DNA from: a virus
IMG/VR virus record: IMGVR_UViG_3300044641_010298
Coordinates: 32,001-96,000 of that record
DNA: 64,000 bases
Direction: 5' to 3' (one strand)
Part shown: in pieces, positions 16,661 through 64,000 of the stretch
Layout: each line of letters starts with the position of its first letter
How positions within the stretch are numbered: the first letter of the stretch is position 1
Notes under the pieces: generated by a model
What the model was told of the DNA's origin: nothing
Databases searched by the model: none
The model's input: only the letters and a program-made list of their open reading frames with translations
Program-made: the position numbers and the translations under genes

Positions 16661-16668
16661 CTGATCTC

Positions 16669-42680: not shown

Positions 42681-42693
42681 GTCTCCATTATTA

Positions 42694-44619: not shown

Positions 44620-44629
44620 TTTAGACCTC

Positions 44630-51918: not shown

Positions 51919-52254
51919 TCAAGCCTTTCTGGCAGAAAAAATGATGTCACCCTCACGTGAAAAATCATACGCGATCTTCTTTCCACCATAAGCAGATCTT
52001 AGCTTTGACAGGCGGACAAGGGCGCGCTCAGCTGCCTTCTCGCTAATACCGAGCATTCCTGCAATCATCCAGGGAAAAATGATATTTCCACCCTTGGCGC
52101 CGCCCATGCTGTCGACTATGTCAATTGCCGTCCTAAGAACTTCCTCTTCTACCTCTGTCAGAGGATCAGTGAAGTAGCCATCGTTGGATTCTCTAATCAG
52201 AGAAGAAATTTCACGTCTTACGATTCGACGAAGATTTGACTCAGATATGTTCAT
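51919..52254 (-). CDS. Leader-family protein with putative winged-HTH
   Basis: MNISESNLRRIVRREI; 'MIAGMLGISEKAAERALVRL' HTH pattern. Confidence 0.6.
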   Translation of the reverse strand: MNISESNLRRIVRREISSLIRESNDGYFTDPLTEVEEEVLRTAIDIVDSMGGAKGGNIIFPWMIAGMLGISEKAAERALVRLSKLRSAYGGKKIAYDFSREGDIIFSARKA

Positions 52255-52267
52255 GATTTTTTCTCCT

Positions 52268-53140
52268 CTAGTTCACGTCAACGACAAGGATCTTTCCACG
52301 AAGATTCTGTCTCGCCTCGACGGCAGCCTGCTTGATCATTTTTCTAAGCAATTTGAACGCCTCCTGGACCTCCTCGGGTGCGGTCTCGAAAGCTTCAGAA
52401 AAAACAAATCCCTTGCCCGTGATGAGCTCCTGCGTCATCACCTCGGCAAGTGACTCAATATAGGAGCCGAGCTCTCCCTTCCTGGCAGAACCCATCGTTA
52501 GATACTTGTCGAAAGGAACATTAGCGCCCTCATCAATGATAGGAAATAGAGGATCATCAGGGCCCGCATAGTAGGTCTTGCTGCCAAGCTCGATGAAAGT
52601 GGGAGAGATCTTTGAAACCTCCTTGGCCGAATCATCATCCATACCATCAATGTTGAAAAATGCGTGGAAGATCATCCAGGGAGATGCCATGGTCCCACGC
52701 TCGGCGCCCGAGGTCGTATACAGTAAGATCAGATCATCAGGGCCCAGGTCATCAGGAGTTTTCCGATAGCCCATCTTCTGCATCTGTTTGATCTTTCTAG
52801 GCGTCAACGTCAGGACAATACCCCGGTTTGTGACACCATCAGTGAAATCTGTCCCACGTGCGTCAATGTCCTCAATATTTCCGACATAGGGCGCGACAAA
52901 GACTCGAAATGGAAGATGTGCGTAAAGTCGGAGCGCCGTATCTTCAAACTTCTTGCTAAGCGCAAGAGCCGTCGCCGCCCGGGGATTGGGAGAATATTGA
53001 CCAGTTCCGCCTGCTTCAAAATCTTTGCTAGGCTTTCTTGAAAAACCAACGCCCAGCCTTCCAGCATAGGGCATCTCATCTAGCTTTCGAGAAAGCTCTT
53101 CTCTAATGATCTGCCTGATCGTGCTCTCTAGTATTCTCAA
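52268..53140 (-). CDS. Leader-family protein, unknown cargo
   Basis: MRILESTIRQIIREELSRKLDE; TTG start; GATATGTA upstream. Confidence 0.7.
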   Translation of the reverse strand: MRILESTIRQIIREELSRKLDEMPYAGRLGVGFSRKPSKDFEAGGTGQYSPNPRAATALALSKKFEDTALRLYAHLPFRVFVAPYVGNIEDIDARGTDFTDGVTNRGIVLTLTPRKIKQMQKMGYRKTPDDLGPDDLILLYTTSGAERGTMASPWMIFHAFFNIDGMDDDSAKEVSKISPTFIELGSKTYYAGPDDPLFPIIDEGANVPFDKYLTMGSARKGELGSYIESLAEVMTQELITGKGFVFSEAFETAPEEVQEAFKLLRKMIKQAAVEARQNLRGKILVVDVN

Positions 53141-53159
53141 GTGAAATCCTTGTTAGGGC

Positions 53160-53167
53160 TACATATC
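53160..53167 (-). promoter_or_regulatory. Putative late promoter GATATGTA
   Basis: 19 nt upstream of a leader-family start. Confidence 0.6.
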
Positions 53168-53169
53168 GA

Positions 53170-53630
53170 GGCTCAAAAGTGACCCATTTTTCCCGGGAAA
53201 TTTTTAGGACCACTTTTGATTCCCAAAATTCTCTCGGCCCAGATTTTTGAGCTCGCGCGGGAGCCCTCGGCAGATGATGGGGGCGATGGGCCCTTCGGGT
53301 CAAATTTTCTCGGGAAATTTTCGGGAGATCGCGGGAATGAGGGAAAATCAGCGATCCGGGTGAGAGGGCTGACTTGTTTAAGTCAAAATTTTCCGGGCGG
53401 TCGGCGGAGACTTAGGCGGCCCCGGCGCCCTGCAGGGAGCGCCGGTGGGCTTGGGACCCTGGGGGGCCCGCCCGGGGCGGGCCCCCCAGCCCCCTGCCAT
53501 AGGGCCCCCTGGGGCGCCCCCTGCCCTGCCAGGGGTAGCCCTGACGCTACACGAGCCCTACCCAGCCCCGGGCAGCAGGGTGGGCAGCGTCCGCCAGAAT
53601 GCAGGGCTGGGGGGCAGACTGCCCGGTGGC
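53170..53630. other. Non-coding junction: repeated A/T tracts then extremely GC-rich palindromic DNA; candidate genome end, packaging site or origin
   Basis: AAAATTTT-type tracts at 53175-53392; G/C runs at 53400-53630; base composition shifts here. Confidence 0.5.
53459..53489. repeat. Perfect 15-bp inverted repeat with 1-nt centre
   Basis: CTGGGGGGCCCGCCC-G-GGGCGGGCCCCCCAG. Confidence 0.9.
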
Positions 53631-53633
53631 TAC

Positions 53634-53735
53634 CTACAGCAGGCTGAGGATCCAGGCGCTGATGACCGAGCCGGCAACACCGAGGGCCACCATCGTGACC
53701 ACCTGGCGGCGTGTCATGAACCAGTTCCACTCCAT
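53634..53735 (-). CDS. 33-aa membrane micropeptide MEWNWFMTRRQVVTMVALGVAGSVISAWILSLL
   Basis: GGAGG RBS and its own promoter copy; missed by the ORF track. Confidence 0.7.
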   Translation of the reverse strand: MEWNWFMTRRQVVTMVALGVAGSVISAWILSLL

Positions 53736-53756
53736 GTTGCTCCTCCCTACCTGATC

Positions 53757-53787
53757 ATAGTACCACAGCGGGTCGCGGTGACACGCG
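53757..53787 (-). promoter_or_regulatory. Cassette promoter copy (variant)
   Basis: CGCGTGTC-N14-TGGTACTAT. Confidence 0.65.
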
Positions 53788-53788
53788 G

Positions 53789-54577
53789 CTACGGGTTCTT
53801 TGGATCCCAGCGCCTCTGCTCGGGGATCGACTCGGTGTACAGCCGCACCGCTCGGGCAACATCTGTGTGCCCAGCCGACTCTGCCAGCCGCGCGATGGCG
53901 TTGCCCTCTCTCTCTATGATGTCGTTCATCATCTGTGACACCTGGCTGATGTCCTCTGGCATCGTGTTATAGACATCCCTGAGGTAATCAGCTGACACCT
54001 GGTAGGCATCGTCTGTCTTGTCGAGGAAGTCGATTGTGCTGAGGCCGTAGCCGCCCCACTTGATCATCTTGAAGGCTCCCTCGATGACAGTGCCGGCGCG
54101 GATCTCCACCATGTCCATGAGCGCGCCGACATAGCCCAGGATTGACATGCCCATGAAGAAGATGGAGATGTGGTAGGCGGTCTCGTAGGCTTCTAGCACG
54201 GTGGCTCGCTGCGCCGGGTCCAGCCTCTCCTGCTGCGCGAGCGCATCCTCGTACCTCTTCTTCGCCAGCGAGAACTGGACGACAGAGGTGAGCAGCGCTG
54301 TTGTGTCAAATATGAACCCAGTGTACCTCAGGTTCCCCTGGATGAAGTTGGTGACGAAGCCGAACAGGTCGTTGATCGCGCTGATCGACTGGAGGCTGTC
54401 CTCCATGTCTTGAGTGTCTAGCATCTGCAGCACATCAGCGTGAGAGGCTGCGACCGTGGCTGCTGGGTTCTTGTGTGCTAGCCGCCCGGTGTCTGGCTCG
54501 AAGGTCCCGAGCTCAGCCTCTCTCAGCAGCTCTCTCACCGCCTCTCGAAGCAGGCGGCCCTGTGTCGTCACGCTCAT
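53789..54577 (-). CDS. Leader-family protein with hydrophobic helices
   Basis: 'GRLLREAVRELLREAE'; hydrophobic segment 'ISIFFMGMSILGYVGALM'; GATATGTA upstream. Confidence 0.65.
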   Translation of the reverse strand: MSVTTQGRLLREAVRELLREAELGTFEPDTGRLAHKNPAATVAASHADVLQMLDTQDMEDSLQSISAINDLFGFVTNFIQGNLRYTGFIFDTTALLTSVVQFSLAKKRYEDALAQQERLDPAQRATVLEAYETAYHISIFFMGMSILGYVGALMDMVEIRAGTVIEGAFKMIKWGGYGLSTIDFLDKTDDAYQVSADYLRDVYNTMPEDISQVSQMMNDIIEREGNAIARLAESAGHTDVARAVRLYTESIPEQRRWDPKNP

Positions 54578-54598
54578 CGTGTAGCCCCATGTTGAGGC

Positions 54599-54606
54599 TA
54601 CATATC
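54599..54606 (-). promoter_or_regulatory. Putative late promoter GATATGTA
   Basis: Upstream of a leader-family gene within the GC-rich array. Confidence 0.6.
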
Positions 54607-54615
54607 ACCCGCCGA

Positions 54616-54939
54616 TCAGCTGTGGACCAGGGCCTTGCACATCCGGGCGATCGCCACCCGACCACCGCGGCCGATCAGCAGGTCCGGGTCGTGCCCCTCG
54701 GTCACGGACAGGGTGGCCTCGGGGACACCGTGGCCGACGGGCTTCGGCATCCGGGGGAGGAGCCCGTTCCAGTTCACCTTGAACCGGGTCGGGTACCGGG
54801 GATCCATGCGGTCGGTGGCCACGAACTTGTGCTCCTGGCCTTCGGGGCCGACCGCGATCCCGCTGACCGCGGTGGTGCCCAGGGGGGAGACCGTGACGGA
54901 GGTGATCTTGAAGGTCCAGCGGAGGTTGGCGGTGGCCAT
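54616..54939 (-). CDS. Cassette-encoded hypothetical protein (paralog of 61300-61683)
   Basis: AAGGA RBS; own promoter copy. Confidence 0.7.
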   Translation of the reverse strand: MATANLRWTFKITSVTVSPLGTTAVSGIAVGPEGQEHKFVATDRMDPRYPTRFKVNWNGLLPRMPKPVGHGVPEATLSVTEGHDPDLLIGRGGRVAIARMCKALVHS

Positions 54940-54975
54940 GTTGTCGTCCTTGGTTTGGGGTCCGTTAGCTCAGAC

Positions 54976-55006
54976 ATCATACCATTCAACGCCTGAGGCG
55001 CACGGG
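54976..55006 (-). promoter_or_regulatory. Cassette promoter copy
   Basis: CCCGTGCG-N14-TGGTATGAT. Confidence 0.85.
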
Positions 55007-55008
55007 CC

Positions 55009-55128
55009 TCAGTTGAGGCAGTTGATCAGCGGGCAGATCCCGGAGAGGTAGACGAGGGCCGCGACATTGGCGACGAAGAGGGACCCAGCGATCGAGACGG
55101 TGCCCCAGATGACGGTGTCGGTGGTCAT
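55009..55128 (-). CDS. 39-aa membrane peptide MTTDTVIWGTVSIAGSLFVANVAALVYLSGICPLINCLN
   Basis: AAGGAGG RBS; own promoter; missed by the ORF track. Confidence 0.7.
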   Translation of the reverse strand: MTTDTVIWGTVSIAGSLFVANVAALVYLSGICPLINCLN

Positions 55129-55177
55129 TTGATTCCTCCTTCCTGGGCGGTGTCCATCACCGCCTCCTTGCCAGATC

Positions 55178-55208
55178 ATCATACCATTCAGCGGTCAGCC
55201 CGCACGGG
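55178..55208 (-). promoter_or_regulatory. Cassette promoter copy
   Basis: CCCGTGCG-N14-TGGTATGAT. Confidence 0.85.
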
Positions 55209-55210
55209 CT

Positions 55211-55420
55211 TCAGTGGTTGGCGATCCGGTTCGCCGCGGTCCGGTCGAGGTCCCAGCCCTTCTGCTGGACCGTCTGGTGGCTCGTGTCGACCAGGTCCTT
55301 CACCTCACCGCCCACCGTCCGGACAGTGAAGTTGCGGCCCGCAACCTCGATCACCTCAGCCGCCATCCACTCACCTCGGATCCGAACCACCAGGCTCTCA
55401 CCAATCAGGGGATTGACCAT
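55211..55420 (-). CDS. Small SH3/Tudor-like beta-barrel protein
   Basis: AAGGAGG RBS; 'IGESLVVRIRGEWMAAEVIEV' pattern. Confidence 0.65.
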   Translation of the reverse strand: MVNPLIGESLVVRIRGEWMAAEVIEVAGRNFTVRTVGGEVKDLVDTSHQTVQQKGWDLDRTAANRIANH

Positions 55421-55439
55421 GTTGCCTCCTTGTGATCCT

Positions 55440-55470
55440 ATTCTACCACCGCGACCCTGCCCCGCACGGG
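55440..55470 (-). promoter_or_regulatory. Cassette promoter copy
   Basis: CCCGTGCG-N14-TGGTAGAAT. Confidence 0.85.
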
Positions 55471-55473
55471 CCG

Positions 55474-55755
55474 TCAGCCGACCATGAAGGCCGCCATCGG
55501 GACCCGCAGCGGGCGGCAGGCCGTCACCTCGGCCACCCAGGCCTCGTGCTTCGCCTCGGCCTCCGCCTCGAGCCGGGCCCGCTCACGCCACTCATCCTCG
55601 AGGTCCCGGGTCGCCGCCTCCCAGCCCTCCGCCGTGTCGTCCTCCGGGCGGTACCACCGCGGCTTGATGTTGTGGACCGCCTTGAAGGCGTCGACGAAGT
55701 TGTAGAAGGCCTCGACCTGGGCGTGGGTGGCGAAGGAGGCGGTGTTGATGGCCAT
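55474..55755 (-). CDS. Small phage-type hypothetical protein
   Basis: 'DAFKAVHNIKPR' motif; GGAG RBS; own promoter. Confidence 0.7.
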   Translation of the reverse strand: MAINTASFATHAQVEAFYNFVDAFKAVHNIKPRWYRPEDDTAEGWEAATRDLEDEWRERARLEAEAEAKHEAWVAEVTACRPLRVPMAAFMVG

Positions 55756-55791
55756 GTTTGACTCCGTTCTCTGAGGTTGCCTAGCTCTGTT

Positions 55792-55822
55792 ATTCTACCA
55801 ACGGGTCCCAGGGACGCACGGG
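55792..55822 (-). promoter_or_regulatory. Cassette promoter copy
   Basis: CCCGTGCG-N14-TGGTAGAAT. Confidence 0.85.
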
Positions 55823-55823
55823 C

Positions 55824-56036
55824 CTACGTGAATCTTGAGCGGCGCCTTGCATCGATGTAGGCATCACCGGAGTCTTCAGCATCGCCAAACATTGGCTGAA
55901 ACCGCTTGCTGTAGTGAGATCGGGTCGCTGTCTCGTCTTCCTCAGGCTCCCGCCAGGTCTCAGGGTCTTGATCGGGATCAGGCTTTCGTAGCTCTTCTCT
56001 GATGATGTGTCGAAGCTGGCGCTCGGTGATCCTCAC
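55824..56036 (-). CDS. Leader-family small protein
   Basis: MRITERQLRHIIREEL; GATATGTA upstream. Confidence 0.75.
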   Translation of the reverse strand: MRITERQLRHIIREELRKPDPDQDPETWREPEEDETATRSHYSKRFQPMFGDAEDSGDAYIDARRRSRFT

Positions 56037-56055
56037 ATGTGCCCCTAGATGGGTC

Positions 56056-56063
56056 TACATATC
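56056..56063 (-). promoter_or_regulatory. Putative late promoter GATATGTA
   Basis: Upstream of an MRITE gene. Confidence 0.65.
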
Positions 56064-56132
56064 GCCCTGGGCCAACAGCGACAACATCGCACAGACACAA
56101 GTCAGGCCCCAGTGACGGGGCCCGAGGTGGTG

Positions 56133-56513
56133 TTAGCGCGAGCGCTTGATTTGCAAGCCGTGCGGAACTCTTCCCGCCTCTATGCGGCTCTGGATCTCAC
56201 CGGCTGGTAGATCCAAGAATTCATCCGGATCGTCGCCGTACTCGTACTCATCCTCGTCTGGCTCATCGAGGTCGAGATTTGAAAACATGTCATCAAACTT
56301 CTTGCCAAAGTCAGGGTCAGTGAGCTTGGGTCGCCTGAACATTGTGGGCTCTCTCATCTTGCGGGCGGTCTCTGCACCCGGGCCAGAGAAGTCATCCATC
56401 CCAGACTCCTCGTAATCGCCTGTCTCTGGGTTCTTGCGGAATGTAACGCCCTTCCTCATCTCATTCAGCTCCTCGCGGACTATCCGGCGAAGCTGGCCCT
56501 CAGTGATCCTCAT
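56133..56513 (-). CDS. Leader-family acidic protein
   Basis: MRITEGQLRRIVREELNE; GATATGTA and AGGAGG upstream. Confidence 0.75.
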   Translation of the reverse strand: MRITEGQLRRIVREELNEMRKGVTFRKNPETGDYEESGMDDFSGPGAETARKMREPTMFRRPKLTDPDFGKKFDDMFSNLDLDEPDEDEYEYGDDPDEFLDLPAGEIQSRIEAGRVPHGLQIKRSR

Positions 56514-56532
56514 GATGTGCCTCCTGTGATTC

Positions 56533-56540
56533 TACATATC
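56533..56540 (-). promoter_or_regulatory. Putative late promoter GATATGTA
   Basis: Upstream of an MRITE gene. Confidence 0.65.
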
Positions 56541-56671
56541 GCCCCGCTCACCCAGTGCAGGATCAATGTTGCGCAGCGCCAGATCGCGCCCCTTGCATCA
56601 GGATCTCGGCGCCGTGATGCACATCGGGCGCCCCCAGACCGCATCTCCTGCAGCCTGTGGCGCCCTAGTGA

Positions 56672-56989
56672 TTAAGCCTTTGAACGCTTCCAGGCCATGT
56701 AGGCTGCCCTTCCCTCTTCAGCTGATCCGAAGTCCTGTCCGTGAGAAGGATGCGAAGATGGGAACTTGAGGCCGTAACGGAACTCATAATCAGCCTCTGA
56801 CTCACCGGGACCGTCGTCGTCAACTCCGTAGTTCATCTCAGCGCTGCGGTCGTAGTCATATCCGCTGCTGTACCCGCCGCCGTAATAGCCGCTACCACCG
56901 TATTTGCTCCCGCCGCGGCGGTAGGTCTCTGTCATCCTGCTGATCTCTTCCTTGATGATCTTTCTCAACTGCGATGCTGTGATTCTCAT
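56672..56989 (-). CDS. Leader-family Gly/Tyr-rich protein
   Basis: MRITASQLRKIIKEEISRMTE; GATAAGTA upstream. Confidence 0.75.
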   Translation of the reverse strand: MRITASQLRKIIKEEISRMTETYRRGGSKYGGSGYYGGGYSSGYDYDRSAEMNYGVDDDGPGESEADYEFRYGLKFPSSHPSHGQDFGSAEEGRAAYMAWKRSKA

Positions 56990-57008
56990 GTGATCCTCTT
57001 GGTGTCTG

Positions 57009-57016
57009 TACTTATC
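57009..57016 (-). promoter_or_regulatory. Putative late promoter GATAAGTA
   Basis: Upstream of the MRITA gene. Confidence 0.6.
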
Positions 57017-57106
57017 ACCATCCGTAGAACTTTAGCAGCGTTGTGAACACAACATTCCAGAACAGGATCAGCGTTGCCTTCAACAGGGTATCGAGGACCC
57101 AGAGCT

Positions 57107-57322
57107 CTACAGCCTGCCGTGTGATTCGAGCATGGTCACCACCTCGGGCGGTAGCTCCTCCTTCAGGATGCTCTGTGTCCCCACGCGGCCGTCCTTCGTC
57201 TTGTAGCCGATCTGCCATCCGTGCCTCACCTTCTGCTCTACCTCTAGCTCTGTCCCCTTGGGCCACTCAGTGCCGAAGCGGGTCGTGTACTTCTGCTTGA
57301 GAGTTACAACTTCACCAACCAT
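57107..57322 (-). CDS. Small SH3-like hypothetical protein
   Basis: AAGGAGG RBS. Confidence 0.65.
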   Translation of the reverse strand: MVGEVVTLKQKYTTRFGTEWPKGTELEVEQKVRHGWQIGYKTKDGRVGTQSILKEELPPEVVTMLESHGRL

Positions 57323-57332
57323 TCTCTCCTCC

Positions 57333-57644
57333 TTAGCCTAGCGCCCAGCAGAGCGCAGCGAAAGCGATTGTGAATCCGATCTCCATCACCACCCGGGCCA
57401 CATCTCTCGCCAGCGGCGGCGGCATCACCAGGAGCGACAAGCCCACCAGCCCGAGGGCAGCGGAGTACATGATCACATTGGCGATCAGGAACGCCGTCCC
57501 CCAGCCCCCAGCGATCAGGAGCACCGTGAGCAGGGACCAGCACCCGCGGAGCATGAGCGCCCAGGTTGGGTCATTCGCTCGCAGCGCCCGCCACATGTCC
57601 CAGATGGTCAGGGCGCCCCAGAGAATTGCACCGATCGATGGCAT
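57333..57644 (-). CDS. Multi-pass membrane protein (probably leaderless transcript)
   Basis: About 4 hydrophobic segments; TGtTAGGAT 5 nt before the ATG. Confidence 0.6.
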   Translation of the reverse strand: MPSIGAILWGALTIWDMWRALRANDPTWALMLRGCWSLLTVLLIAGGWGTAFLIANVIMYSAALGLVGLSLLVMPPPLARDVARVVMEIGFTIAFAALCWALG

Positions 57645-57677
57645 AGAACATCCTAACACCCAGTGGGTGCTTGTGTA

Positions 57678-57818
57678 TCAGGTTCGAGAGATCTGGGAAC
57701 AGACCACCAGCATCACGACCCAAGCGACCATCAGGCCCAGGAGCCAGGCGGGGCCGTCGGACCAGGCGATGTGATCGACGGCCATGAGCTGGTGGAAACC
57801 CGAGATGACGTTGTCCAT
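57678..57818 (-). CDS. 46-aa membrane peptide MDNVISGFHQ...
   Basis: GGAGG RBS; own promoter; C-terminal TM segment; missed by the ORF track. Confidence 0.65.
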   Translation of the reverse strand: MDNVISGFHQLMAVDHIAWSDGPAWLLGLMVAWVVMLVVCSQISRT

Positions 57819-57836
57819 TCTTCCCTCCGTGGATCT

Positions 57837-57867
57837 ATTATAACACGTGACCAAGATCCTGCACGGG
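57837..57867 (-). promoter_or_regulatory. Cassette promoter copy
   Basis: CCCGTGCA-N14-TGTTATAAT. Confidence 0.8.
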
Positions 57868-57870
57868 TCT

Positions 57871-58323
57871 CTACCCAGCGTCCTCCCAGTCCTTGATCCG
57901 CTGCCAGAGGTCGAAGAGCCGCTTCACATCGGCGAGGGGCAGGGAGGTGAGTCCCTCGCTGAACTTGAGCGAGAGCTCGTCCATGTCCACCGTCACATCA
58001 CCGCCACCCATGTTCACCGTGATGCTCCGGATCGGCTGGAAGGGGACGATGCAGCCCGAGGGGCTGACGGGACGGACAGCCGGCGTGCCGTCAGCAGTGG
58101 TCATGCCCCTGTCAGCCATCAGGACCTCGACGGCCTCCTTCGCCTCCTTCAGGCCGACGCCGGGCCGGTCCTTGCCGCTGAAAGGATCGATCGTTCGGTG
58201 GCGAGAGGCGTCGCGGACCACCTTGATCGCGTTGATCTTGTTGGCGTAGCCGCCGCCCGTCTTGTCGTCCAGGAGCGTCTTCACCTGGCTCATCTCTTCC
58301 GCGGTCAGCATGATCTTGATCAT
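57871..58323 (-). CDS. Ribosomal protein bL12 (L7/L12) C-terminal-domain-containing protein
   Basis: 'NKINAIKVVRD...GVGLKEAKEAVE' matches the bL12 CTD signature. Confidence 0.7.
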   Translation of the reverse strand: MIKIMLTAEEMSQVKTLLDDKTGGGYANKINAIKVVRDASRHRTIDPFSGKDRPGVGLKEAKEAVEVLMADRGMTTADGTPAVRPVSPSGCIVPFQPIRSITVNMGGGDVTVDMDELSLKFSEGLTSLPLADVKRLFDLWQRIKDWEDAG

Positions 58324-58340
58324 CTTTCCTCTCCGTGGTT

Positions 58341-58679
58341 CTATTCTACCAGGACCCCGCGCTCTCGCAGGAGCTTCACAGCTGCGGTGTGCCCGTGAGC
58401 CGTGAGGATCTCGATCGCTTTCGCCTCAGCGGTGGGCTCGTCATCGGTGTCAGCGAGGATGTGACCCAGCTCGTGAGCCTCAATCGCCAGCAGGTGGTCG
58501 GGAGTGCACCATCCCTGGCTGGCGATGCGCCCATCGATCACAGCGACTGGGTACTCCGTCCCGCGGATCGCATAGCCGTGATTCTGATCAGAGAGCCGCT
58601 CGACCACCGTGCCTTCATCTCGGTCCTCAACCTCGACGACCAGCACATTGCTTGCCATGTCGGACATCCTGAACTTCAT
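58341..58679 (-). CDS. Small HExxH metallopeptidase-like protein
   Basis: 'AIEAHELGH....DEPTA' motif; GGAGG RBS. Confidence 0.6.
   Translation of the reverse strand: MKFRMSDMASNVLVVEVEDRDEGTVVERLSDQNHGYAIRGTEYPVAVIDGRIASQGWCTPDHLLAIEAHELGHILADTDDEPTAEAKAIEILTAHGHTAAVKLLRERGVLVE
58343..58373 (-). promoter_or_regulatory. Cassette promoter copy (variant, inside the upstream CDS end)
   Basis: CTCCTGCG-N14-TGGTAGAAT. Confidence 0.7.
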
Positions 58680-58699
58680 CTCGCCTCCCTTCTACATCT

Positions 58700-58730
58700 A
58701 TCGTATCACTTCGCATGCCCGTCACACAGC
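58700..58730 (-). promoter_or_regulatory. Cassette promoter copy (degenerate)
   Basis: GCTGTGTG-N14-TGATACGAT. Confidence 0.45.
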
Positions 58731-59125
58731 GTGCGGACCCAGCCTCCGCCGCGGGGCTTCCCAGGTGCACCACAGATCTCACAGGTGCGGAGCGCAAGCG
58801 ATTCAGCGAGAGCGATTGCACCGTCGATGTAGTCGTCGCTATTGCTCACATAGAATCGCAGCCCGCCCCACTTCTCCTTCACCTGCACCGCGACTGTCTG
58901 GTGGCCCTCATCCCATTCAGCATCAGTGAGGTCCTTAAAGTCGCTCTTCTTCCGCTTCCAGTCCAGGTGGTGCTGGATTGTGTTACACAGCGTGTCGACG
59001 ATGTCATACCAGCCGTCGTCATGCTCGAAGCCGAAGCACATCAGTGTCTGGCGGGGATCGCCCCGCCTGTCACAAAAGATCTTCGGGTATCGCTCACACA
59101 GTGACTTGTCCTTCTCCTCAGTCAT
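58706..59125 (-). CDS. Conserved phage hypothetical protein with C-terminal Zn finger
   Basis: 'GWYDI...QVKEKWGGLRFY...TCEICG...TLC..H' pattern. Confidence 0.7.
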   Translation of the reverse strand: MTEEKDKSLCERYPKIFCDRRGDPRQTLMCFGFEHDDGWYDIVDTLCNTIQHHLDWKRKKSDFKDLTDAEWDEGHQTVAVQVKEKWGGLRFYVSNSDDYIDGAIALAESLALRTCEICGAPGKPRGGGWVRTLCDGHAK

Positions 59126-59331
59126 TTATTCCTCTCGTTGTGTCTATCGAGCATCGCTTGAATCGCTTCGATCACCACCCGCTGGAATCCCTCTTGATCG
59201 TCCGGCTGGAGCCCAAACGCTGCATAGAACTGGTCAACCTTGTCATCCTCGATCTCGAAGACAAATCGCGACCCGCCACCCTCTTGCGGAGCCTCGCTAA
59301 TGCTCAGCAGCCCAGGAATATCACTCATCAT
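59122..59331 (-). CDS. Hypothetical protein
   Basis: Coupled ORF. Confidence 0.55.
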   Translation of the reverse strand: MMSDIPGLLSISEAPQEGGGSRFVFEIEDDKVDQFYAAFGLQPDDQEGFQRVVIEAIQAMLDRHNERNK

Positions 59332-59665
59332 TCTTCACCTTTCCAGACGCAGCCAGCTCGGCGTAGCCTGGGTAGTACCCAGTTCCCTCGTGTAGATGCC
59401 TGAGCAGATTCTGGGGCCCGAATCCCTCAGCGTCACAGTGGGCATCCCAGAAGTCCTTGATCTCATCATAGGCTCGCAGCTGGACGGTGCGGAGCCGGAG
59501 GATCTCTTGGCTGAGGCGGGTCACCTCCGACTCAAGCGCAGCGACCTTGCTCGGCTCCGACACCCAGCGAGCGAAATCACGAATGACACCCTTGTGTGAT
59601 CGAAGCAGGTCCTCGACATCCTGCTCGTTGATTCTATGCAGCCAGCCTGGCACATCGTTTGACAT
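59321..59665 (-). CDS. Hypothetical protein
   Basis: GGGGAG RBS; coiled-coil middle region. Confidence 0.6.
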   Translation of the reverse strand: MSNDVPGWLHRINEQDVEDLLRSHKGVIRDFARWVSEPSKVAALESEVTRLSQEILRLRTVQLRAYDEIKDFWDAHCDAEGFGPQNLLRHLHEGTGYYPGYAELAASGKVKNDE

Positions 59666-59673
59666 CGCTCCCC

Positions 59674-59841
59674 CTAGAAGGTGATCACCTGCTCCCAGTC
59701 AAATTCCTCGGCATCCGTGAGCAGCGCATCAAAGAGGCTCTGCTCAGCGCCGGAATCACCCAGTGCCTCCTGCATCGCCTCGCTTGGTGGCTGGTCAGGC
59801 CGCCGCTCGATTACAATCTGGCGCGTCCTGGCGCGGTCCAT
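59674..59841 (-). CDS. 55-aa acidic hypothetical protein MDRARTRQIV...
   Basis: TGATG stop/start overlap; fills the gap; missed by the ORF track. Confidence 0.55.
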   Translation of the reverse strand: MDRARTRQIVIERRPDQPPSEAMQEALGDSGAEQSLFDALLTDAEEFDWEQVITF

Positions 59842-60071
59842 CACTCATCCTCGCCACGCTTCGTGTTGCCTGTCTGGGGCTGGCGCTTCCGGATCACCAG
59901 GGTGGCCCGTGGGCGCTCGCCTGGCTTGAGCTCGGCGTCATCCTTCGGGTAGAAGACCACGAAGGTGCTGTCGCGGAGGTCAACGAGCGCTGGAAGATCG
60001 GCTCCGCCGATCAGGTACTCATCCCCGTTCTTGTCGGTGCGGGGCGTCAAACGGATCTCAAATTGGTTCAT
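59841..60071 (-). CDS. Hypothetical protein
   Basis: Start MNQFE after AAAGGA. Confidence 0.6.
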   Translation of the reverse strand: MNQFEIRLTPRTDKNGDEYLIGGADLPALVDLRDSTFVVFYPKDDAELKPGERPRATLVIRKRQPQTGNTKRGEDE

Positions 60072-60084
60072 GGTAACATCCTTT

Positions 60085-60354
60085 CTATGATACATCTTTG
60101 TCGTCTGGCTCCTCGCTCACCGGACCATTCCGGAAAGGGAGGACATTGGGTCGAGGCGGAGCCTCCTCCTCGTCATCATCGTCGTCGTCATCGTACTGCC
60201 ACCCGTTGGCGAGCAGCATCGCGATGAAGGTCGCCACCGTCTCCTGATGCATCTTGATGATCCGATCCCCGGTCCGCAGGCCGTAGATCGCGCCAAGGAT
60301 CGCACCGCTGATGAAAGAGAGCGTGACGAGGATGAGGGCGACTGAGGGGTCCAT
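60085..60354 (-). CDS. Membrane-anchored protein with poly-Asp/Glu tail
   Basis: N-terminal TM segment; DDDDDDDEEE tract. Confidence 0.65.
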   Translation of the reverse strand: MDPSVALILVTLSFISGAILGAIYGLRTGDRIIKMHQETVATFIAMLLANGWQYDDDDDDDEEEAPPRPNVLPFRNGPVSEEPDDKDVS

Positions 60355-60384
60355 GGCTATATTCTGGTCCAGGGCTGCGGGTTG

Positions 60385-60564
60385 TTAATGCTCGAGCGAG
60401 CCGGTCCGCACTTGGACCAGCGTCCATAGGTCATCCAGCGCCGGGTCCGGGTCCTCCTGTAGGGCAGCTTTAAGCGAGAAGAGGTCGTCGGGTTCCATCT
60501 CGTTCAGGAGCCAGAGGTTGTCTGCGACCTGACGAGGGGTGGGCGGTGCTTCAAGATTGATCAT
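60385..60564 (-). CDS. 59-aa acidic hypothetical protein MINLEAPPTP...
   Basis: AGGAG RBS; missed by the ORF track. Confidence 0.6.
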   Translation of the reverse strand: MINLEAPPTPRQVADNLWLLNEMEPDDLFSLKAALQEDPDPALDDLWTLVQVRTGSLEH

Positions 60565-60572
60565 GTTGACTC

Positions 60573-60626
60573 CTATCGGAAAGAAGCGAGGAAGAGAAGG
60601 ATGATGATGCCCATGATGATCGCCAT
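60573..60626 (-). CDS. 17-aa hydrophobic micropeptide MAIIMGIIILLFLASFR
   Basis: TAAGGAGG RBS and promoter copy directly upstream. Confidence 0.6.
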   Translation of the reverse strand: MAIIMGIIILLFLASFR

Positions 60627-60647
60627 TGTTTGCCTCCTTACCTTGTT

Positions 60648-60678
60648 ATTGTACCAGGTCGCCCACCGCCCGCACGGG
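60648..60678 (-). promoter_or_regulatory. Cassette promoter copy
   Basis: CCCGTGCG-N14-TGGTACAAT. Confidence 0.85.
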
Positions 60679-60679
60679 C

Positions 60680-60826
60680 TTAGCCCTCGACCTCGATCAC
60701 CTGGAGGAGGCCCTCGATCGTGTCGAGGTCGAGGCCGGACCAGAGGGCGCGGGAGATGACCACGCCGGTGTCGAGCCCCTGGGCCTTGGTCGCGAGGATC
60801 TGGTCGATGAAGTGGTGAGCTGCCAT
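60680..60826 (-). CDS. 48-aa hypothetical protein (paralog of 63187-63417)
   Basis: GGAGG RBS; own promoter; 'GLDTGVVISRALW' segment. Confidence 0.7.
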   Translation of the reverse strand: MAAHHFIDQILATKAQGLDTGVVISRALWSGLDLDTIEGLLQVIEVEG

Positions 60827-60870
60827 GTTTGCCTCCAGGGCGGAGTCCATCCCCGCCGCCTTGCCAGATT

Positions 60871-60901
60871 ATTCTACCATCAGCTGTCAGGGTCGCACGA
60901 G
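60871..60901 (-). promoter_or_regulatory. Cassette promoter copy
   Basis: CTCGTGCG-N14-TGGTAGAAT. Confidence 0.85.
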
Positions 60902-60917
60902 GCCCCGGCCGGTGAGG

Positions 60918-61223
60918 CTAGAGGGAAAGGAATCGAGAGATATCAGAGGAATCAATGTAGAACTCAATGCCGGATTGAGTCTTGAGGCGGAGCTGGGGAT
61001 GGGCCAGGCCGGCCTGCTTGGAGGTCAGGATGGCCAGGAGCTGGACTTGATCACCGGGGTTCAGGTGGGAGGTGGGATCAGGATTGATGGGGTAGGAATT
61101 GAAGGGGCCGGGGTGCCGGGAAACAAGGTTGGGAATGCGGGGGTTGAAGTTGATGCAGGTTTTCTTGGTGATGGTGAGGGTGGAGGGGTTGGTGTTCCGG
61201 ATGATGGTGAGGTTGAGAGCCAT
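60918..61223 (-). CDS. Hypothetical protein, G-poor coding strand
   Basis: AAGGAGG RBS; own promoter. Confidence 0.65.
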   Translation of the reverse strand: MALNLTIIRNTNPSTLTITKKTCINFNPRIPNLVSRHPGPFNSYPINPDPTSHLNPGDQVQLLAILTSKQAGLAHPQLRLKTQSGIEFYIDSSDISRFLSL

Positions 61224-61243
61224 TTGTCCTCCTTGGCCTATTC

Positions 61244-61274
61244 ATTATACCAATCGATTCCGGATTCGCACGAG
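61244..61274 (-). promoter_or_regulatory. Cassette promoter copy
   Basis: CTCGTGCG-N14-TGGTATAAT. Confidence 0.85.
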
Positions 61275-61299
61275 GCCCGGAAGGCCGGAGGCCATCCCG

Positions 61300-61683
61300 T
61301 TACGGGGCCGCCTCGAGCCCGAAGAAGCCGTCGTCACCGAGGACGAGGTCGAGCTTCGCCATCATCGCCGCGGCCTCGCCGCTGACCACCTCCTCGGCCG
61401 TCAGGACCGGGACCACGACCGGCGCCGCTTCGACCACCTTCCGGGGCCGCTTGAGGACCGCCTCCGGGAGGGTCATGCCCGCCGCCTTCACCGCGGCCTT
61501 CGCACGATGGCCGATCGAGACCCGGGTCCCGCGGTCGAAGTCACCGCCGGTCACGTGCATGAGCATCTTCGAACCCCAGCGAAGAGGGGATGCGACAAAC
61601 ACTTCACCATCAGCAATCCCGTGGACCACGATGTTTCCGTCCTCAAGAACCACAGATTCGATAGAGATGTTCTTTGAAGCCAT
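61300..61683 (-). CDS. Cassette-encoded hypothetical protein (paralog of 54616-54939)
   Basis: Start MASKN after AAGGAG; own promoter. Confidence 0.7.
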   Translation of the reverse strand: MASKNISIESVVLEDGNIVVHGIADGEVFVASPLRWGSKMLMHVTGGDFDRGTRVSIGHRAKAAVKAAGMTLPEAVLKRPRKVVEAAPVVVPVLTAEEVVSGEAAAMMAKLDLVLGDDGFFGLEAAP

Positions 61684-61724
61684 GTTTAACTCCTTGGTTG
61701 ATTGCTGTTTGTTTCCGCCAGGAT

Positions 61725-61755
61725 ATTTTACCACTCATCTCAATGTTCGCACGAG
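61725..61755 (-). promoter_or_regulatory. Cassette promoter copy
   Basis: CTCGTGCG-N14-TGGTAAAAT. Confidence 0.85.
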
Positions 61756-61793
61756 AATCGATACATGAGAGAAGTTGTCGCCATACTTAGACT

Positions 61794-61884
61794 AGACCCC
61801 TGGTGAGTTAGTTCTCTTCTCCGGCAGAGAACTTCTGCGACAAACGATTTGTTCGCAACTCAGTATCAACCAGGGGTCTTTTTT
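61794..61884 (+). ncRNA. Candidate structured RNA (three-way junction ending in a U-tract) upstream of the HNH gene
   Basis: AGACCCCTGGT/ACCAGGGGTCT outer stem, two inner hairpins, TTTTTT tail, late-type CATACTTA just upstream. Confidence 0.45.
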
Positions 61885-61941
61885 GTCAGAAGAGAATATA
61901 TAGAAACATCGAGGATTGATACTCCTCGTCCGGAGAGAAAC

Positions 61942-62604
61942 ATGACCAAAGCAATATACGCAGAGTGCATGTATTGTGGGAAGCCACACAGAAAGAAATC
62001 AGCAAGCCCACGATGTTCCAAGTGCAAATACCTCGACCCTGATTTTAGGAAGAAAGTTTCAGATGGTCTCAAACAAAGCCTCAACAATCCTGAGACAAGA
62101 AAGTCAAGATCAGAGAAAGCAAAGCGAATGTGGTCTGATGAATCATACAGAGAAAAACAAGCTGAATCATATTCCTCCAGAAAAGACGAAGAATATCGAT
62201 CCAAGCAATCGATTTCAAATAGCTCTATTTGGTCAAGCCTAGAGCTTCGAGAAAGACAATCAAAAATGGCAAAAGAAAGATGGGACAATCCTGATTACAG
62301 GAGCAAATTTCTTGAAACAGTCAGGGAAGAAGAATACAGAAAGAGAAAATCTCTCTCGCTGGGCGGAGATGGTGACTTAAGTAGAATCGAAAATGATCAA
62401 TCATCTGCGCTCAAGCAGTGGTCAAAGAAAGTAAAAACAAGAGACAACCATCAATGCCAGCACTGCGGATCAGTGAATGATTTGCATGCTCATCACGTCA
62501 AGCGAAAAGCAATGTTTCCTGATCTGGCCCTTGAGATTACCAATGGAATCACGCTCTGCTCATTGTGCCATGCACAAGAGCACAGAAAGCTGAACAATCA
62601 GTAG
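61942..62604 (+). CDS. HNH homing endonuclease with NUMOD3-like helical repeats
   Basis: 'RDNHQCQHCG...HAHH...NGITLCSLCH' motif; N-terminal CxxC..CxxC; AT-rich and antisense to the array. Confidence 0.85.
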   Translation: MTKAIYAECMYCGKPHRKKSASPRCSKCKYLDPDFRKKVSDGLKQSLNNPETRKSRSEKAKRMWSDESYREKQAESYSSRKDEEYRSKQSISNSSIWSSLELRERQSKMAKERWDNPDYRSKFLETVREEEYRKRKSLSLGGDGDLSRIENDQSSALKQWSKKVKTRDNHQCQHCGSVNDLHAHHVKRKAMFPDLALEITNGITLCSLCHAQEHRKLNNQ

Positions 62605-62792
62605 ACAACGACTTTAATTATCTGGTCGTCGTAGCCCCAGCACCACTCGCCGGGGCGGACCATGCCGTCGAAGCCGGGCCGGCCGTTCTTGATGTCCGAT
62701 TCCTTGGACTCGACCTCGACCGTGCGGACCTCGCCGCCAAAGGCGCGGTACTTGATGATGGAGCCGACGCGGTAGTTGTGCTGCTTGTTCAT
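62598..62792 (-). CDS. Small SH3-like phage protein
   Basis: AAGGAGG RBS; 'DIKNGRPGFDG...WGYDDQI' motif. Confidence 0.7.
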   Translation of the reverse strand: MNKQHNYRVGSIIKYRAFGGEVRTVEVESKESDIKNGRPGFDGMVRPGEWCWGYDDQIIKVVVY

Positions 62793-62811
62793 CTTGCCTC
62801 CTTGTGAAGTT

Positions 62812-62842
62812 ATTCTACCACACCCGACCCGACCCGCACGGG
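62812..62842 (-). promoter_or_regulatory. Cassette promoter copy
   Basis: CCCGTGCG-N14-TGGTAGAAT, abutting the upstream TGA. Confidence 0.85.
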
Positions 62843-63127
62843 TCAGATCGACGCGAGTCCCATCTTCAGGAGGTCGATCCTCCGGACCTGGGAAGGACGG
62901 GGGTCACGGTGATTGGACCACTTCTTGATGTCCTTCTCGATCACACCCTTCAGGAGTCGGATCGAGTCCTCCTGGGTCGAACCCCACTTTCCACACTCCA
63001 CAGTCCTGGATCCATCCGCGCACATCCAGGTCTTCCACACGTCCTCAGTCAGTCCCTGGACCTTGAGATAGGAGAAGAATCCATTGGGGGCGACCGTCGT
63101 TTCGATGAAGAAGTTGAGACCCATCAT
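62843..63127 (-). CDS. Hypothetical protein
   Basis: Start MMGLN after AAGGAGG; own promoter. Confidence 0.7.
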   Translation of the reverse strand: MMGLNFFIETTVAPNGFFSYLKVQGLTEDVWKTWMCADGSRTVECGKWGSTQEDSIRLLKGVIEKDIKKWSNHRDPRPSQVRRIDLLKMGLASI

Positions 63128-63155
63128 TCTGTCCTCCTTGGTTCCTGACCTCGAT

Positions 63156-63186
63156 ATCATACCATCGATCGGGTCGGTCGCACGGG
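63156..63186 (-). promoter_or_regulatory. Cassette promoter copy
   Basis: CCCGTGCG-N14-TGGTATGAT, abutting the upstream TGA. Confidence 0.85.
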
Positions 63187-63417
63187 TCAGATCGCGACGG
63201 AGCCGTCCTGGGGGAGGTGCAGCCGGGCGACCGCCGCATCCATCTCAGCAGCGGACCACTCTTGGAGCTGAGCATCGACCTCGGGGGCCAGACTCCGCTC
63301 CCGGGCGAGGTCCCACAGGTCGCGGTTGATGACCGAGCCGGTCTCGAGCGGGAGCTCTCCCTTGAAGGTGGCGTTGCCGACGAGACGGATGAGGGTCGCG
63401 ATTCGGTGAGCGGTCAT
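63187..63417 (-). CDS. Hypothetical protein (paralog of 60680-60826)
   Basis: GGAGG RBS; flanked by 35-bp direct repeats. Confidence 0.7.
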   Translation of the reverse strand: MTAHRIATLIRLVGNATFKGELPLETGSVINRDLWDLARERSLAPEVDAQLQEWSAAEMDAAVARLHLPQDGSVAI

Positions 63418-63438
63418 GCTGTCCTCCGTTGTGTGTAG

Positions 63439-63469
63439 ATCATACCATCGATCGGGTCGGGCGCACGGG
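63439..63469 (-). promoter_or_regulatory. Cassette promoter copy
   Basis: CCCGTGCG-N14-TGGTATGAT, abutting the upstream TGA. Confidence 0.85.
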
Positions 63470-64000
63470 TCAGCTGCCGGCGATCGTGGTCACCTGCCTG
63501 ACCTCTCGGTAGCCGCCCACGCTGAAGTAGGAGCGCTGCCGGTCAGCGAGCGAGACGAGAGTTGGATCCAACGCTCGGGCCCACTTGAGCCGGTTCTCGA
63601 TGATGGCGATCTGGTGCTGGTGACCGCGGCCATTCGTGGGCGGCGGGACATGGGCCCAGAGCACCCGCATCCCCATCAGCCGGTCCACAGCCGCGACCCG
63701 ATCCGGGCACAGGCCCTGGTGCACCATGGCTGCAGCAGCACAGGACATCGACCAGCCAGTGCCCGTCGGGGTCCGGCTGTCGAGATGGGTGATCAGCCTC
63801 TCAGCCAGCGAGCGCCCGTGGGTCTTGCCCGCGTACATGATCTGCTCGCCCTCGAACAGGATGTAGATGCCCACGGGGTGGGGCTCGCCCGCCAGCGCCT
63901 GCACCATCAGGTCGCGGACGGAGAGATCGCCCAGCACCGGGGCGGTCCCGCTGCGGTGGAGAGCCGCGCCCTGGATCCGACCTAGCGGGAGCCCGCCCCA
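63470..64000 (-). CDS. GIY-YIG nuclease-like protein (5' end probably outside the window)
   Basis: 'GIYILF....YAGKT...LAERL..H...E' motif; frame open to the window edge. Confidence 0.65.
   Translation of the reverse strand, partial: WGGLPLGRIQGAALHRSGTAPVLGDLSVRDLMVQALAGEPHPVGIYILFEGEQIMYAGKTHGRSLAERLITHLDSRTPTGTGWSMSCAAAAMVHQGLCPDRVAAVDRLMGMRVLWAHVPPPTNGRGHQHQIAIIENRLKWARALDPTLVSLADRQRSYFSVGGYREVRQVTTIAGS

Follow-up and report, generated by a model that had tools for sequence, protein, structure and literature searches.

T4 middle promoters combine a MotA box, centred at -30, with a -10 element and rely on sigma appropriation by AsiA/MotA. Extended -10 promoters are reportedly transcribed by sigma-70 lacking region 4.2, an observation attributed to Kumar et al. 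in 1993. Sigma function divided between two proteins is known from T4 gp55/gp33, SPO1 gp34/gp33, B. subtilis SigO-RsoA and Tn916 Sig7-Sig8, the last pair driving the promoter ahead of its own genes (bioRxiv 10.64898/2026.10.01.756105). In the PeSL (promoter-early stem-loop) cassettes of T4-type phages, small ORFans of a hyperplastic region are flanked by repeated promoter units; related phages differ by indels and replacements whose crossovers lie in the unit, some of them in the segment from the -10 to the start codon (Arbiol et al. 2010, PMC2839356; Comeau et al. 2014, PMC4122927).

The window analysed here is a stretch of 64,000 nt, positions 32,001 to 96,000 of the 104-kb virus record IMGVR_UViG_3300044641_010298 (G000; CheckV completeness 32%), which derives from a freshwater large myovirus (giant phage). 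G001 (97 kb) and G003 are related phage records. A preliminary description of the window had listed 15 minus-strand copies of a promoter element, and all of them were present. Thirteen matched CYCGTGCG-N14-TGGTANRAT with at most two mismatches, against 0.07 expected from shuffles, and the copies at 53757 and 58700 were degenerate. As described, eleven copies carried a perfect CGTGCG, ten of the 15 started 0-3 nt after the upstream stop codon, and in three (63469, 63186, and 62842) a TGA was followed directly by CCCGTGCG. The features of the array in the window, in window coordinates, are:

53757..53787, minus strand: degenerate promoter copy, CGCGTGTC-N14-TGGTACTAT, then a 33-aa ORF (53634-53735)
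54976..55006, minus strand: promoter copy; ORF 54616-54939, 107 aa, cluster 16
55178..55208, minus strand: promoter copy with an AUGGA-loop hairpin in the leader; ORF 55009-55128, 39 aa, cluster 27
55440..55470, minus strand: promoter copy; ORF 55211-55420, 69 aa, cluster 39
55792..55822, minus strand: promoter copy; ORF 55474-55755, 93 aa, cluster 38
55824..57836, minus strand: element-free block of several tightly packed genes, ATATGTAG before two of them
57837..57867, minus strand: promoter copy (CCCGTGCA, TGTTATAAT); ORF 57678-57818, 46 aa
58343..58373, minus strand: promoter copy (CTCCTGCG) embedded in the upstream ORF at its 3' end; ORF 57871-58323, 150 aa
58700..58730, minus strand: weak copy with TGATACGAT and a poor box; ORF 58341-58679, 112 aa
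58731..60647, minus strand: operon-like run of small overlapping genes lacking the element, in synteny with G001
60648..60678, minus strand: promoter copy; ORF 60385-60564, 59 aa, preceded by a hydrophobic mini-ORF of 17 codons
60871..60901, minus strand: promoter copy with a hairpin leader; ORF 60680-60850, 56 aa
61244..61274, minus strand: promoter copy; ORF 60918-61223, 101 aa
61725..61755, minus strand: promoter copy; ORF 61300-61683, 127 aa, one of three paralogues
61849..62604, plus strand: HNH endonuclease gene of low GC, inserted between two opposite-strand cassettes
62812..62842, minus strand: promoter copy adjoining TGA; ORF 62598-62792, 64 aa
63156..63186, minus strand: promoter copy adjoining TGA; ORF 62843-63127, 94 aa
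63439..63469, minus strand: promoter copy adjoining TGA; ORF 63187-63417, 76 aa

The spacers of the copies at 63469 and 63186 were nearly identical, and the HNH segment had no homologue in G001 and no HSP across it. A motif scan of the whole record, as had been proposed, showed that the array extends beyond the window: the record contains 35 copies, all of them minus-strand, between 85.7 and 104.0 kb. The spacer from CGTGC(G/A) to TGnTAnnAT, reported as invariable, measured 14 nt in 32 of 32 sites of the record, and no site with any other spacer between 10 and 20 nt was found there. The consensus was C(C/T)CGTGC(G/A), exactly 14 nt, then TGGTAnA(A/C)T; the columns of the box and the -10 were nearly invariant, those of the spacer held no information, and neither did columns -14 to 0 upstream of the box, which consist of GC-rich coding sequence or a stop codon. 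None of the copies was recovered by a sigma-70 consensus scan; the -10 fits (TGGTAnAAT) and the -35 is CGTGCG. Canonical TTGACA/TATAAT sites in the three phage records occurred at shuffle expectation, without enrichment. The anatomy originally proposed, an extended -10 of the sigma-70 family whose -35 position is taken by a non-canonical box, was supported, as was the organization into single-gene cassettes headed by the element: element, strong SD, and small ORFan, with the next element mostly 0-3 nt past the stop. Terminator-like sites numbered 9 against 6.3 expected, and none lay at a cassette junction. In G003, a tRNA cluster began 50 nt past the end of a copy (CCCGTGTA-N14-TGGTATAAT); searches of G000 and G001 gave no tRNAs.

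Scanning of metagenomes recovered at least 120 contigs with the element, mostly from lake and other freshwater samples, and at least 734 copies on at least 122 sequences when the G000 and G001 arrays were added to the metagenome loci. Among the matches listed, an SD and an ORF, claimed to stand behind each copy, were seen after 659 of 734 copies, with a median leader of 21 nt and a median ORF of 82 aa, and 257 of 605 stop-to-promoter gaps measured -3 to 3 nt. Among the same listed matches, TG and TA...T were invariant in 626 unique copies, after a filter for TG, and 613 of these had a purine 7 nt after the -10, which we infer to be the +1. When listed sites were anchored on the extended -10 and SD only, the box stood at N14 in 476 of 536 and at N15 in 33. 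At least 659 cassettes yielded at least 224 protein families, defined as protein clusters (nucleotide single-linkage clustering over-merged the cassettes). Fifty-five cassette proteins gave four weak Pfam and four unnamed PHROG matches and are thus essentially ORFans. This large freshwater pool of element-headed cassettes is new here, and the rigid, information-rich element offers a sequence handle for retrieving hundreds of function-unassigned accessory cassettes from metagenomes.

The idea that related genomes gain, lose, and reorder cassettes with the promoter as the joint was supported by indels and a transposition. Between G000 and G001, 11 clean cassette indels were found, all with their joints within the promoter-leader unit of ~55 nt, the sole repeated DNA of the array; every edge lay -9 to +56 nt relative to the promoter start, and one promoter in one genome aligned to both flanking promoters of the other. 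The cassette order 38-39-27-16 of the window was 27-38-39-16 in the relatives L298 and L295, so that the cluster 27 cassette (copy 55178..55208) occupies a different location there; the joints of this transposition were the promoters at 55822, 55208, and 55006. At least two different next neighbours were seen in 32 of 48 cassette families, among the matches listed. Two studies of lake or drinking water gave contigs joined across promoter or leader sites. Two RNA-library runs (X19 and X20) gave contigs that cover about half of the stretch and span several cassettes and that may include carried-over DNA. Intergenic DNA is essentially the promoter-leader unit only, so any viable whole-gene indel must end there, and joints in the element are expected from selection alone. 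Mis-joins at short repeats are possible in metagenome assemblies.

In these joints (11 of 11 indels and one transposition within the promoter unit) the array resembles the PeSLs, and as in T4-type phages the positions in promoter-leader repeats fit homologous recombination. Unlike a PeSL, the element has no stem-loop (pairing across the box was not above the shuffle control), no terminator, and no AT-rich upstream tract; its box is CGTGCG rather than TTGACA, its spacer is rigid, its copy density is much higher, and the array belongs to another phage lineage, in which it forms a GC-rich compartment. Judged from sequence, the element would work like T4-type PeSLs but is not a member of them. The principle of ORFan cassette shuffling, known in T4-type coliphages, is thereby extended to an unrelated, environmentally abundant freshwater lineage, with a unit that is far more uniform and denser and a -35-position box unlike any standard bacterial consensus.

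A candidate reader of the box was found in relatives. In six distinct relatives, with a sigma at least 57% identical to that of G003, the element lies ~50 nt upstream of the sigma gene. This sigma contains regions 1.2, 2, 3, and 4.1 and ends after 4.1, region 4.2 being absent. In at least 40 loci a conserved small ORF (ORF2), always adjacent, comes next after the truncated-sigma gene, and relatives with a full-length sigma and a normal region 4.2 are without ORF2. In low-GC members, GTGCR-N17/18-TAnAWT occurred 22 times on the gene strand and twice on the opposite strand. Neither the assembled 104 kb of G000 nor the 97 kb of G001 yielded the sigma module, so its link to the element is drawn from the relatives. 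ORF2 gave no Pfam match, no PDB sequence match (sigma included), and no Foldseek match, and had no detectable sequence similarity to sigma region 4. The best small-domain matches of its model (pLDDT 83) were LuxR/GerE-type HTH domains at Z 3.3-3.9 only, a low-Z resemblance of a predicted structure. A predicted complex of the sigma C-terminus and ORF2 scored 0.41 against 0.03 for the best control (partner pLDDT at least 63; runs agreeing in at least 76% of contacts), which weakly supports the pairing; 58 of 80 solved pairs attained the mark, as did 2 of 110 mismatched ones, but only 7 of those 80 did so at 0.60 or less.

This module resembles the described split sigmas in that sigma function would be divided over two adjacent genes. 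It differs in that the large piece of the relatives is near-complete and group-1-like (1.2 to 4.1), only region 4.2 missing, and that the small piece, found with its module in relatives only, would supply its function without detectable region 4 similarity. With T4 middle promoters the element shares a canonical -10 and a phage-specific box replacing the -35 at fixed spacing, but its box is at -35, whereas the MotA box is centred at -30; a search for MotA (PF09114) gave no match here, nor in any control genome. The case of Kumar et al. is paralleled by the universal TG and by a lineage that encodes a sigma without region 4.2, in contrast to which the studied element has a strongly conserved upstream box. 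We put the chances that the two-piece phage sigma of the lineage reads the box at about even; this phage-encoded split sigma, as a candidate for the role, is new here, and should it read the box, promoter and sigma would form a compact orthogonal pair and sigma function would be divided in a new way.

On balance, we lean towards the explanation that the locus is a hypervariable recombining cassette array whose composite promoter is read by a phage two-piece sigma. Each unit comprises the box at the -35 position, 14 nt, the extended -10, the putative +1, a ~13-nt leader with AAGGAGG, and the ORFan, whose stop adjoins the next promoter; as there are no terminators, transcription would add up along the array. 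The reader would be the group-1-like sigma ending after region 4.1, recognizing the extended -10, together with the adjacent ~91-aa protein, recognizing the box. Since an element promoter precedes the module's own genes, positive feedback is proposed, and host holoenzyme, using just the extended -10, would carry out the first round of transcription. A phage-sigma-dependent promoter could not be immediate-early on its own. Shuffling would proceed by homologous recombination between the promoter-leader repeats. More tentatively, and with somewhat less than even confidence, the phages may form a widespread uncultured aquatic large-phage clade with a two-piece sigma, a private GTGCR + GGTAnAAT promoter code, and one freshwater sublineage in which this promoter has multiplied to head hundreds of interchangeable ORFan cassettes; its GC-rich cassette compartment might, with the same reserve, be driven by recombination and vary in content among phages.

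An alternative that we consider unlikely is that the host primary-sigma holoenzyme reads the extended -10 alone and the cassettes are immediate-early, the box being the site of a separate regulator (an activator or a shut-off repressor, of phage or host) and the phage sigma serving a later class. Every copy has the TG, and extended -10 promoters need no -35 contact, as with E. coli sigma-70 lacking region 4.2. As a rule, the sigma gene of a phage is early and lies behind a host-read promoter, as with SPO1 gene 28, and by that analogy the element promoter carried by the phage sigma gene itself would fit; other recurrent motifs, such as ATATGTAG, could be phage sigma targets. However, the box varies as little as the -10 does and is locked at one spacing, which fits contact within one initiation complex, and only ORF2 and a 73-aa region-4.2-like protein (window 39970-40191) turned up as candidate regulators of the box.

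It is improbable that CGTGCG is the -35 hexamer of the host's housekeeping sigma and the promoters are ordinary host-type ones. The hexamer stands exactly 17 bp from the -10 hexamer, but primary-sigma region 4.2 and TTGACA-like -35 elements are conserved in most bacterial phyla. An exact-pattern scan of one genome per species (185,579 species), the exact pattern being a weak test, yielded single scattered matches, with two on one contig only in a 1.4-kb MAG fragment, and indicated no host. The box is also kept in related phages from 35 to 62% GC; an ordinary host -35 is unlikely because the box follows the phage lineage across this range. That the repeats are sites of a dedicated, integron-like site-specific recombinase, with the promoter look secondary, is very improbable: adjoining cassettes are separated by 0-3 nt and are drawn from a large pool with very variable content, but unlike integron arrays there is no attC-like complementarity across the box above shuffles, no tyrosine recombinase (PF00589) was matched in three partial, incomplete records where control genomes gave matches, the joints are scattered over ~60 nt rather than at a single point, and the conserved letters are a textbook extended -10 at promoter spacing before an SD and a start codon.

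The array forms a block of 62% GC in a genome of otherwise ~40% GC. A chimeric assembly was considered as the cause of this jump and rejected, the same layout occurring independently in G001; it was also disfavoured by the presence of ATATGTAG in both compartments and of the low-GC HNH gene within the array. The 20-point gap could reflect codon matching of first-expressed genes to a GC-rich host, or GC-biased repair at a recombination hotspot. Neither the array nor the low-GC part gave a megablast match to cultured phages, protein searches matched only distant myoviruses at ~30% identity, and passages of the 'moraphage' paper (PMC12619734) yielded no link to this lineage. In line with the proposed reader, a single contig of 266 kb carries a 61% GC array as well as the sigma module. 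On this contig the GC-rich array lies outside a 164-kb stretch classed as provirus by IMG/VR, and provirus callers are misled by so sharp a GC compartment.

Searching the window with the pattern put forward in the preliminary description returned 13 matches at no more than two mismatches, where 0.07 were expected, and every one of them is on the minus strand; copies 53757 and 58700, also listed there, are degenerate versions. Its counts were reproduced: a perfect CGTGCG occurs 11 times, 10 copies begin 0-3 nt past a stop codon, and three read literally TGA followed by CCCGTGCG. A scan of the whole record of this phage (G000) found 35 copies on a single strand between 85.7 and 104.0 kb, in an array that reaches the contig end. 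The 14-nt spacer proved as rigid as proposed, all 32 sites having CGTGC(G/A) and TGnTAnnAT 14 nt apart and none showing a different spacer between 10 and 20 nt. Across the G000 copies, information content was nil in the 14 spacer columns, and the box and -10 columns were almost invariant. Because spacer length is kept while spacer sequence is free, this pattern is better explained by a functional constraint on geometry than by recent copying.

The range of the element is much wider than a single window could reveal. A metagenome scan with the exact 18-base form of the pattern gave matches on at least 120 contigs, nearly all of about 60% GC, nearly all with every copy on one strand, and mostly from lake or other freshwater samples, judging by their names; together with G000 and the related IMG/VR phage contig G001, these hold at least 734 copies. 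Among the matches listed, 626 unique copies gave the consensus C(C/T)CGTGC(G/A), N14, (G)TGGTAnA(A/C)T, then AA, with a purine 7 nt past the -10 in 613 of them, followed by C, AAGGAGG and the start codon. The implied mRNA leader would be about 13 nt; for cassettes among the matches listed, the median distance from -10 to start codon was 21 nt and the median ORF length 82 aa. When sites were anchored independently of the box, by an extended -10 with an SD and start codon after it and nothing else, the box (at most one mismatch) stood at exactly N14 in 476 of 536 sites and at N15 in 33, with essentially none elsewhere, and 1 of 65 sites had it on the opposite strand (matches listed). Stop codons lay -3 to 3 nt from the next promoter in 257 of 605 cases among the matches listed. 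In the more distant relative G003, one copy (CCCGTGTA-N14-TGGTATAAT) ends 50 nt 5' of a tRNA cluster, which fits a promoter role independent of any downstream ORF. Canonical TTGACA/TATAAT promoters were absent from the array region, and terminators were not in excess there. The promoter-cassette reading is well supported by sequence and comparison. Family matches among 55 cassette proteins were weak and few.

Some leaders carry further features; promoters are named here by their 5' end on the minus strand.

Window 55140-55175 and 60835-60870: AUGGA-loop hairpins in the leaders of promoters 55208 and 60901
Window 60574-60627, minus strand: hydrophobic mini-ORF of 17 codons (MAIIMGIIILLFLASFR) immediately after promoter 60678 and before a 59-aa ORF

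The AUGGA-loop hairpin lies immediately 5' of the SD in 24 of 626 unique leaders (among the matches listed), and its stems vary compensatorily (GCGGTG/CACCGC, GCGGGG/CCCCGC, GAGGGG/CCCCTC, GTGGTG/CACCAC).

The arrays of G000 and G001 are collinear at 70-93% nucleotide identity and differ by whole cassettes. In 11 of 11 clean indels, both edges fell between -9 and +56 nt from a promoter start, and the single promoter of the shorter genome aligned with both flanking promoters of the longer one, the overlaps being 6-54 nt long. Since intergenic DNA consists essentially of the unit alone, viable whole-gene indels have to end within it. Cassette order also differs between related phages: the protein clusters behind promoters 55822, 55470, 55208 and 55006 run 38-39-27-16 in the window, 27-38-39-16 in two lake contigs that are 92-96% identical (L298 and L295), and 27-104-16 in G001. 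By BLAST, the reorder joints map to the promoter-leader stretches belonging to 55822, 55208 and 55006, the breakpoint position that the preliminary description had predicted. Contigs from public runs likewise join across promoter/leader sites. One join (L180, 14167 to 15055) recurred in two studies with identical 19 bridging letters, and two more, 15859 to 16121 and 16592 to 18731, were each present in two studies. Mis-joins at repeats are possible in short-read assemblies. Among the matches listed, 659 cassette proteins formed 224 families at 60% identity, 111 of them singletons, and 32 of the 48 families with at least three observations had two or more different downstream neighbours, a diversity inflated by paralogues. 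Few cassettes of this array recur in those of more distant phages. The proposed role of the promoter unit as a recombination joint has good support from sequence and comparison.

The source record is a linear IMG/VR virus of 104,212 bp (CheckV completeness 32%); the window covers its bases 32001-96000. Within this record the element copies are confined to a block of about 62% GC at 84.5-104.2 kb, the other 84 kb being of about 40% GC. Further features of the two compartments and their boundary are as follows.

Window 47182, 47947, 53166, 54605, 56062 and 56539, minus (gene) strand only: six copies of ATATGTAG
Window 61849-62604, plus strand: low-GC HNH endonuclease gene inserted between two opposite-strand cassettes
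Window 53380-53630: about 250 nt of GC-rich sequence containing G and C runs, at the low/high-GC boundary immediately 3' of the last cassette

An assembly chimera was ruled out as the source of the jump on three grounds: the independent contig G001 (96.8 kb) has a matching layout, with 37 copies within 20 kb at 62% GC and then 40% GC; ATATGTAG is present in both compartments; and the low-GC HNH gene sits within the array. The two compartments are sharply separated (window 52000-64000 versus 1-52000) and are kept in relatives (G001 1-21000; L273). Cassette ORFs have a GC3 of 0.8-0.97, and the tRNAs of G003 serve AT-rich codons (Arg-UCU/CCU, Ile-UAU, Gly-UCC and others). The HNH segment has no counterpart in G001, and in the near relatives L298 and L295 the neighbouring cassette 24 is missing from this site as well. 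Most products of the genes behind ATATGTAG start with a similar amphipathic N-terminus (R-I-T-E-x-Q-L-R-x-I-I-R-E-E), and this motif may represent a second promoter class with a shared N-terminal tag. No convincing minus-strand gene was found in 53380-53630.

In shuffling cassettes modularly at the promoter unit, the array behaves as T4-type PeSLs do (PMC2839356). However, the stem-loop, the sigma-70 -35 and the AT-rich upstream tract of PeSLs were each looked for in the element and are absent from it. As judged from sequence, the array is therefore PeSL-like in its modular working and lies outside the PeSL family.

The box itself is most likely read by a phage factor. In G000, G001 and G003, canonical sigma-70 promoters are about as frequent as shuffling predicts. 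A scan of species genomes, a weak test in that the exact pattern was used, gave scattered single matches and two matches only on one 1.4-kb MAG fragment. A split sigma encoded by relatives has, in our estimate, an even chance of being the reader. The main rival, in which host holoenzyme would act through the extended -10 while a separate regulator binds the box, seems clearly less likely to us.

The candidate sigma module and a small protein resembling sigma region 4.2 are encoded as follows.

L182 1381-2405, and about 40 loci L191-L242: two-gene module of a sigma ending after region 4.1 and a conserved 91-108 aa protein (MSMPKG...MNHSTARN...DPRFQ)
Window 39970-40191, plus strand, opposite to its neighbours: 73-aa stand-alone region-4.2-like protein with a Cys-rich N-terminus

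G003 shares 45 kb of synteny with G000, at 40-90% amino-acid identity, and its sigma-70-family gene stands directly behind an element copy. This sigma has regions 1.2, 2, 3 and 4.1 and then stops; the next gene, with its own SD, encodes a 91-aa product (ORF2). The pair recurs at no fewer than 40 IMG/VR loci, in many of which the stop and start codons overlap; the small gene is missing from more distant relatives that have a sigma with a normal region 4.2. In the six closest distinct loci, the sigma gene has the element about 50 nt upstream, and low-GC members (35-44% GC) carry GTGCA-N17/18-TAnAWT, often ...GGTATAAT, 22 times on the gene strand versus 2 on the other, so the box travels with the phage module over a wide GC range. 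That a sigma gene stands behind its own promoter is no objection, since split sigmas are known, among them Tn916 Sig7-8, which drives its own genes' promoter (bioRxiv 10.64898/2026.10.01.756105).

ORF2 was modelled with confidence (pLDDT 83). The model had no match in a Foldseek search, and a wide structural search reached Z scores of 3.3-3.9 at most, with LuxR/GerE-type HTH domains (DosR, RcsB, DegU, QscR) recurring over residues 19-91. Such domains and sigma region 4 belong to one fold group. Predicted as a complex, the sigma C-terminus and ORF2 scored 0.41 versus 0.03 for the best control (partner pLDDT at least 63, at least 76% of contacts agreeing between runs); this was rated weak support. 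Of 80 solved pairs 58 reached the mark, though only 7 did so with a score of 0.60 or less, and of 110 mismatched pairs 2 reached it. Counting against this candidate, the module was not found in the assembled third of either G000 or G001. The 73-aa protein has a clear HTH of the sigma-70 region 4.2 type (Pfam E 1e-8) and is kept in G001 at 82% identity; no homologue was found in G003. Sigma module and a 61% GC array occur together on the 266-kb metagenome contig that is the parent of G003. The GC-rich array of this contig falls outside the 164-kb stretch classed as provirus by IMG/VR, and the two-gene module is widespread in large uncultured phage contigs (locus GC 27-56%).

On sequence evidence the phage is a distant myovirus, with a baseplate wedge protein about 30% identical to proteins of Microcystis phage Mel-JY01 and the Flavobacterium 'immuto' phages. 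Further genes were noted.

Window 38607-39914 and 41379-47120: PhoH, and a cluster of PrkA-like kinase and DUF444 (YeaH-like) genes

The PrkA-like kinase shares about 33% identity with its counterpart in Thermus phage phiYS40. The stretch, with 99-100% of its sampled words present in certain lake runs, was found in runs from lakes, drinking water and freshwater sediment, belonging to 16 studies in all.
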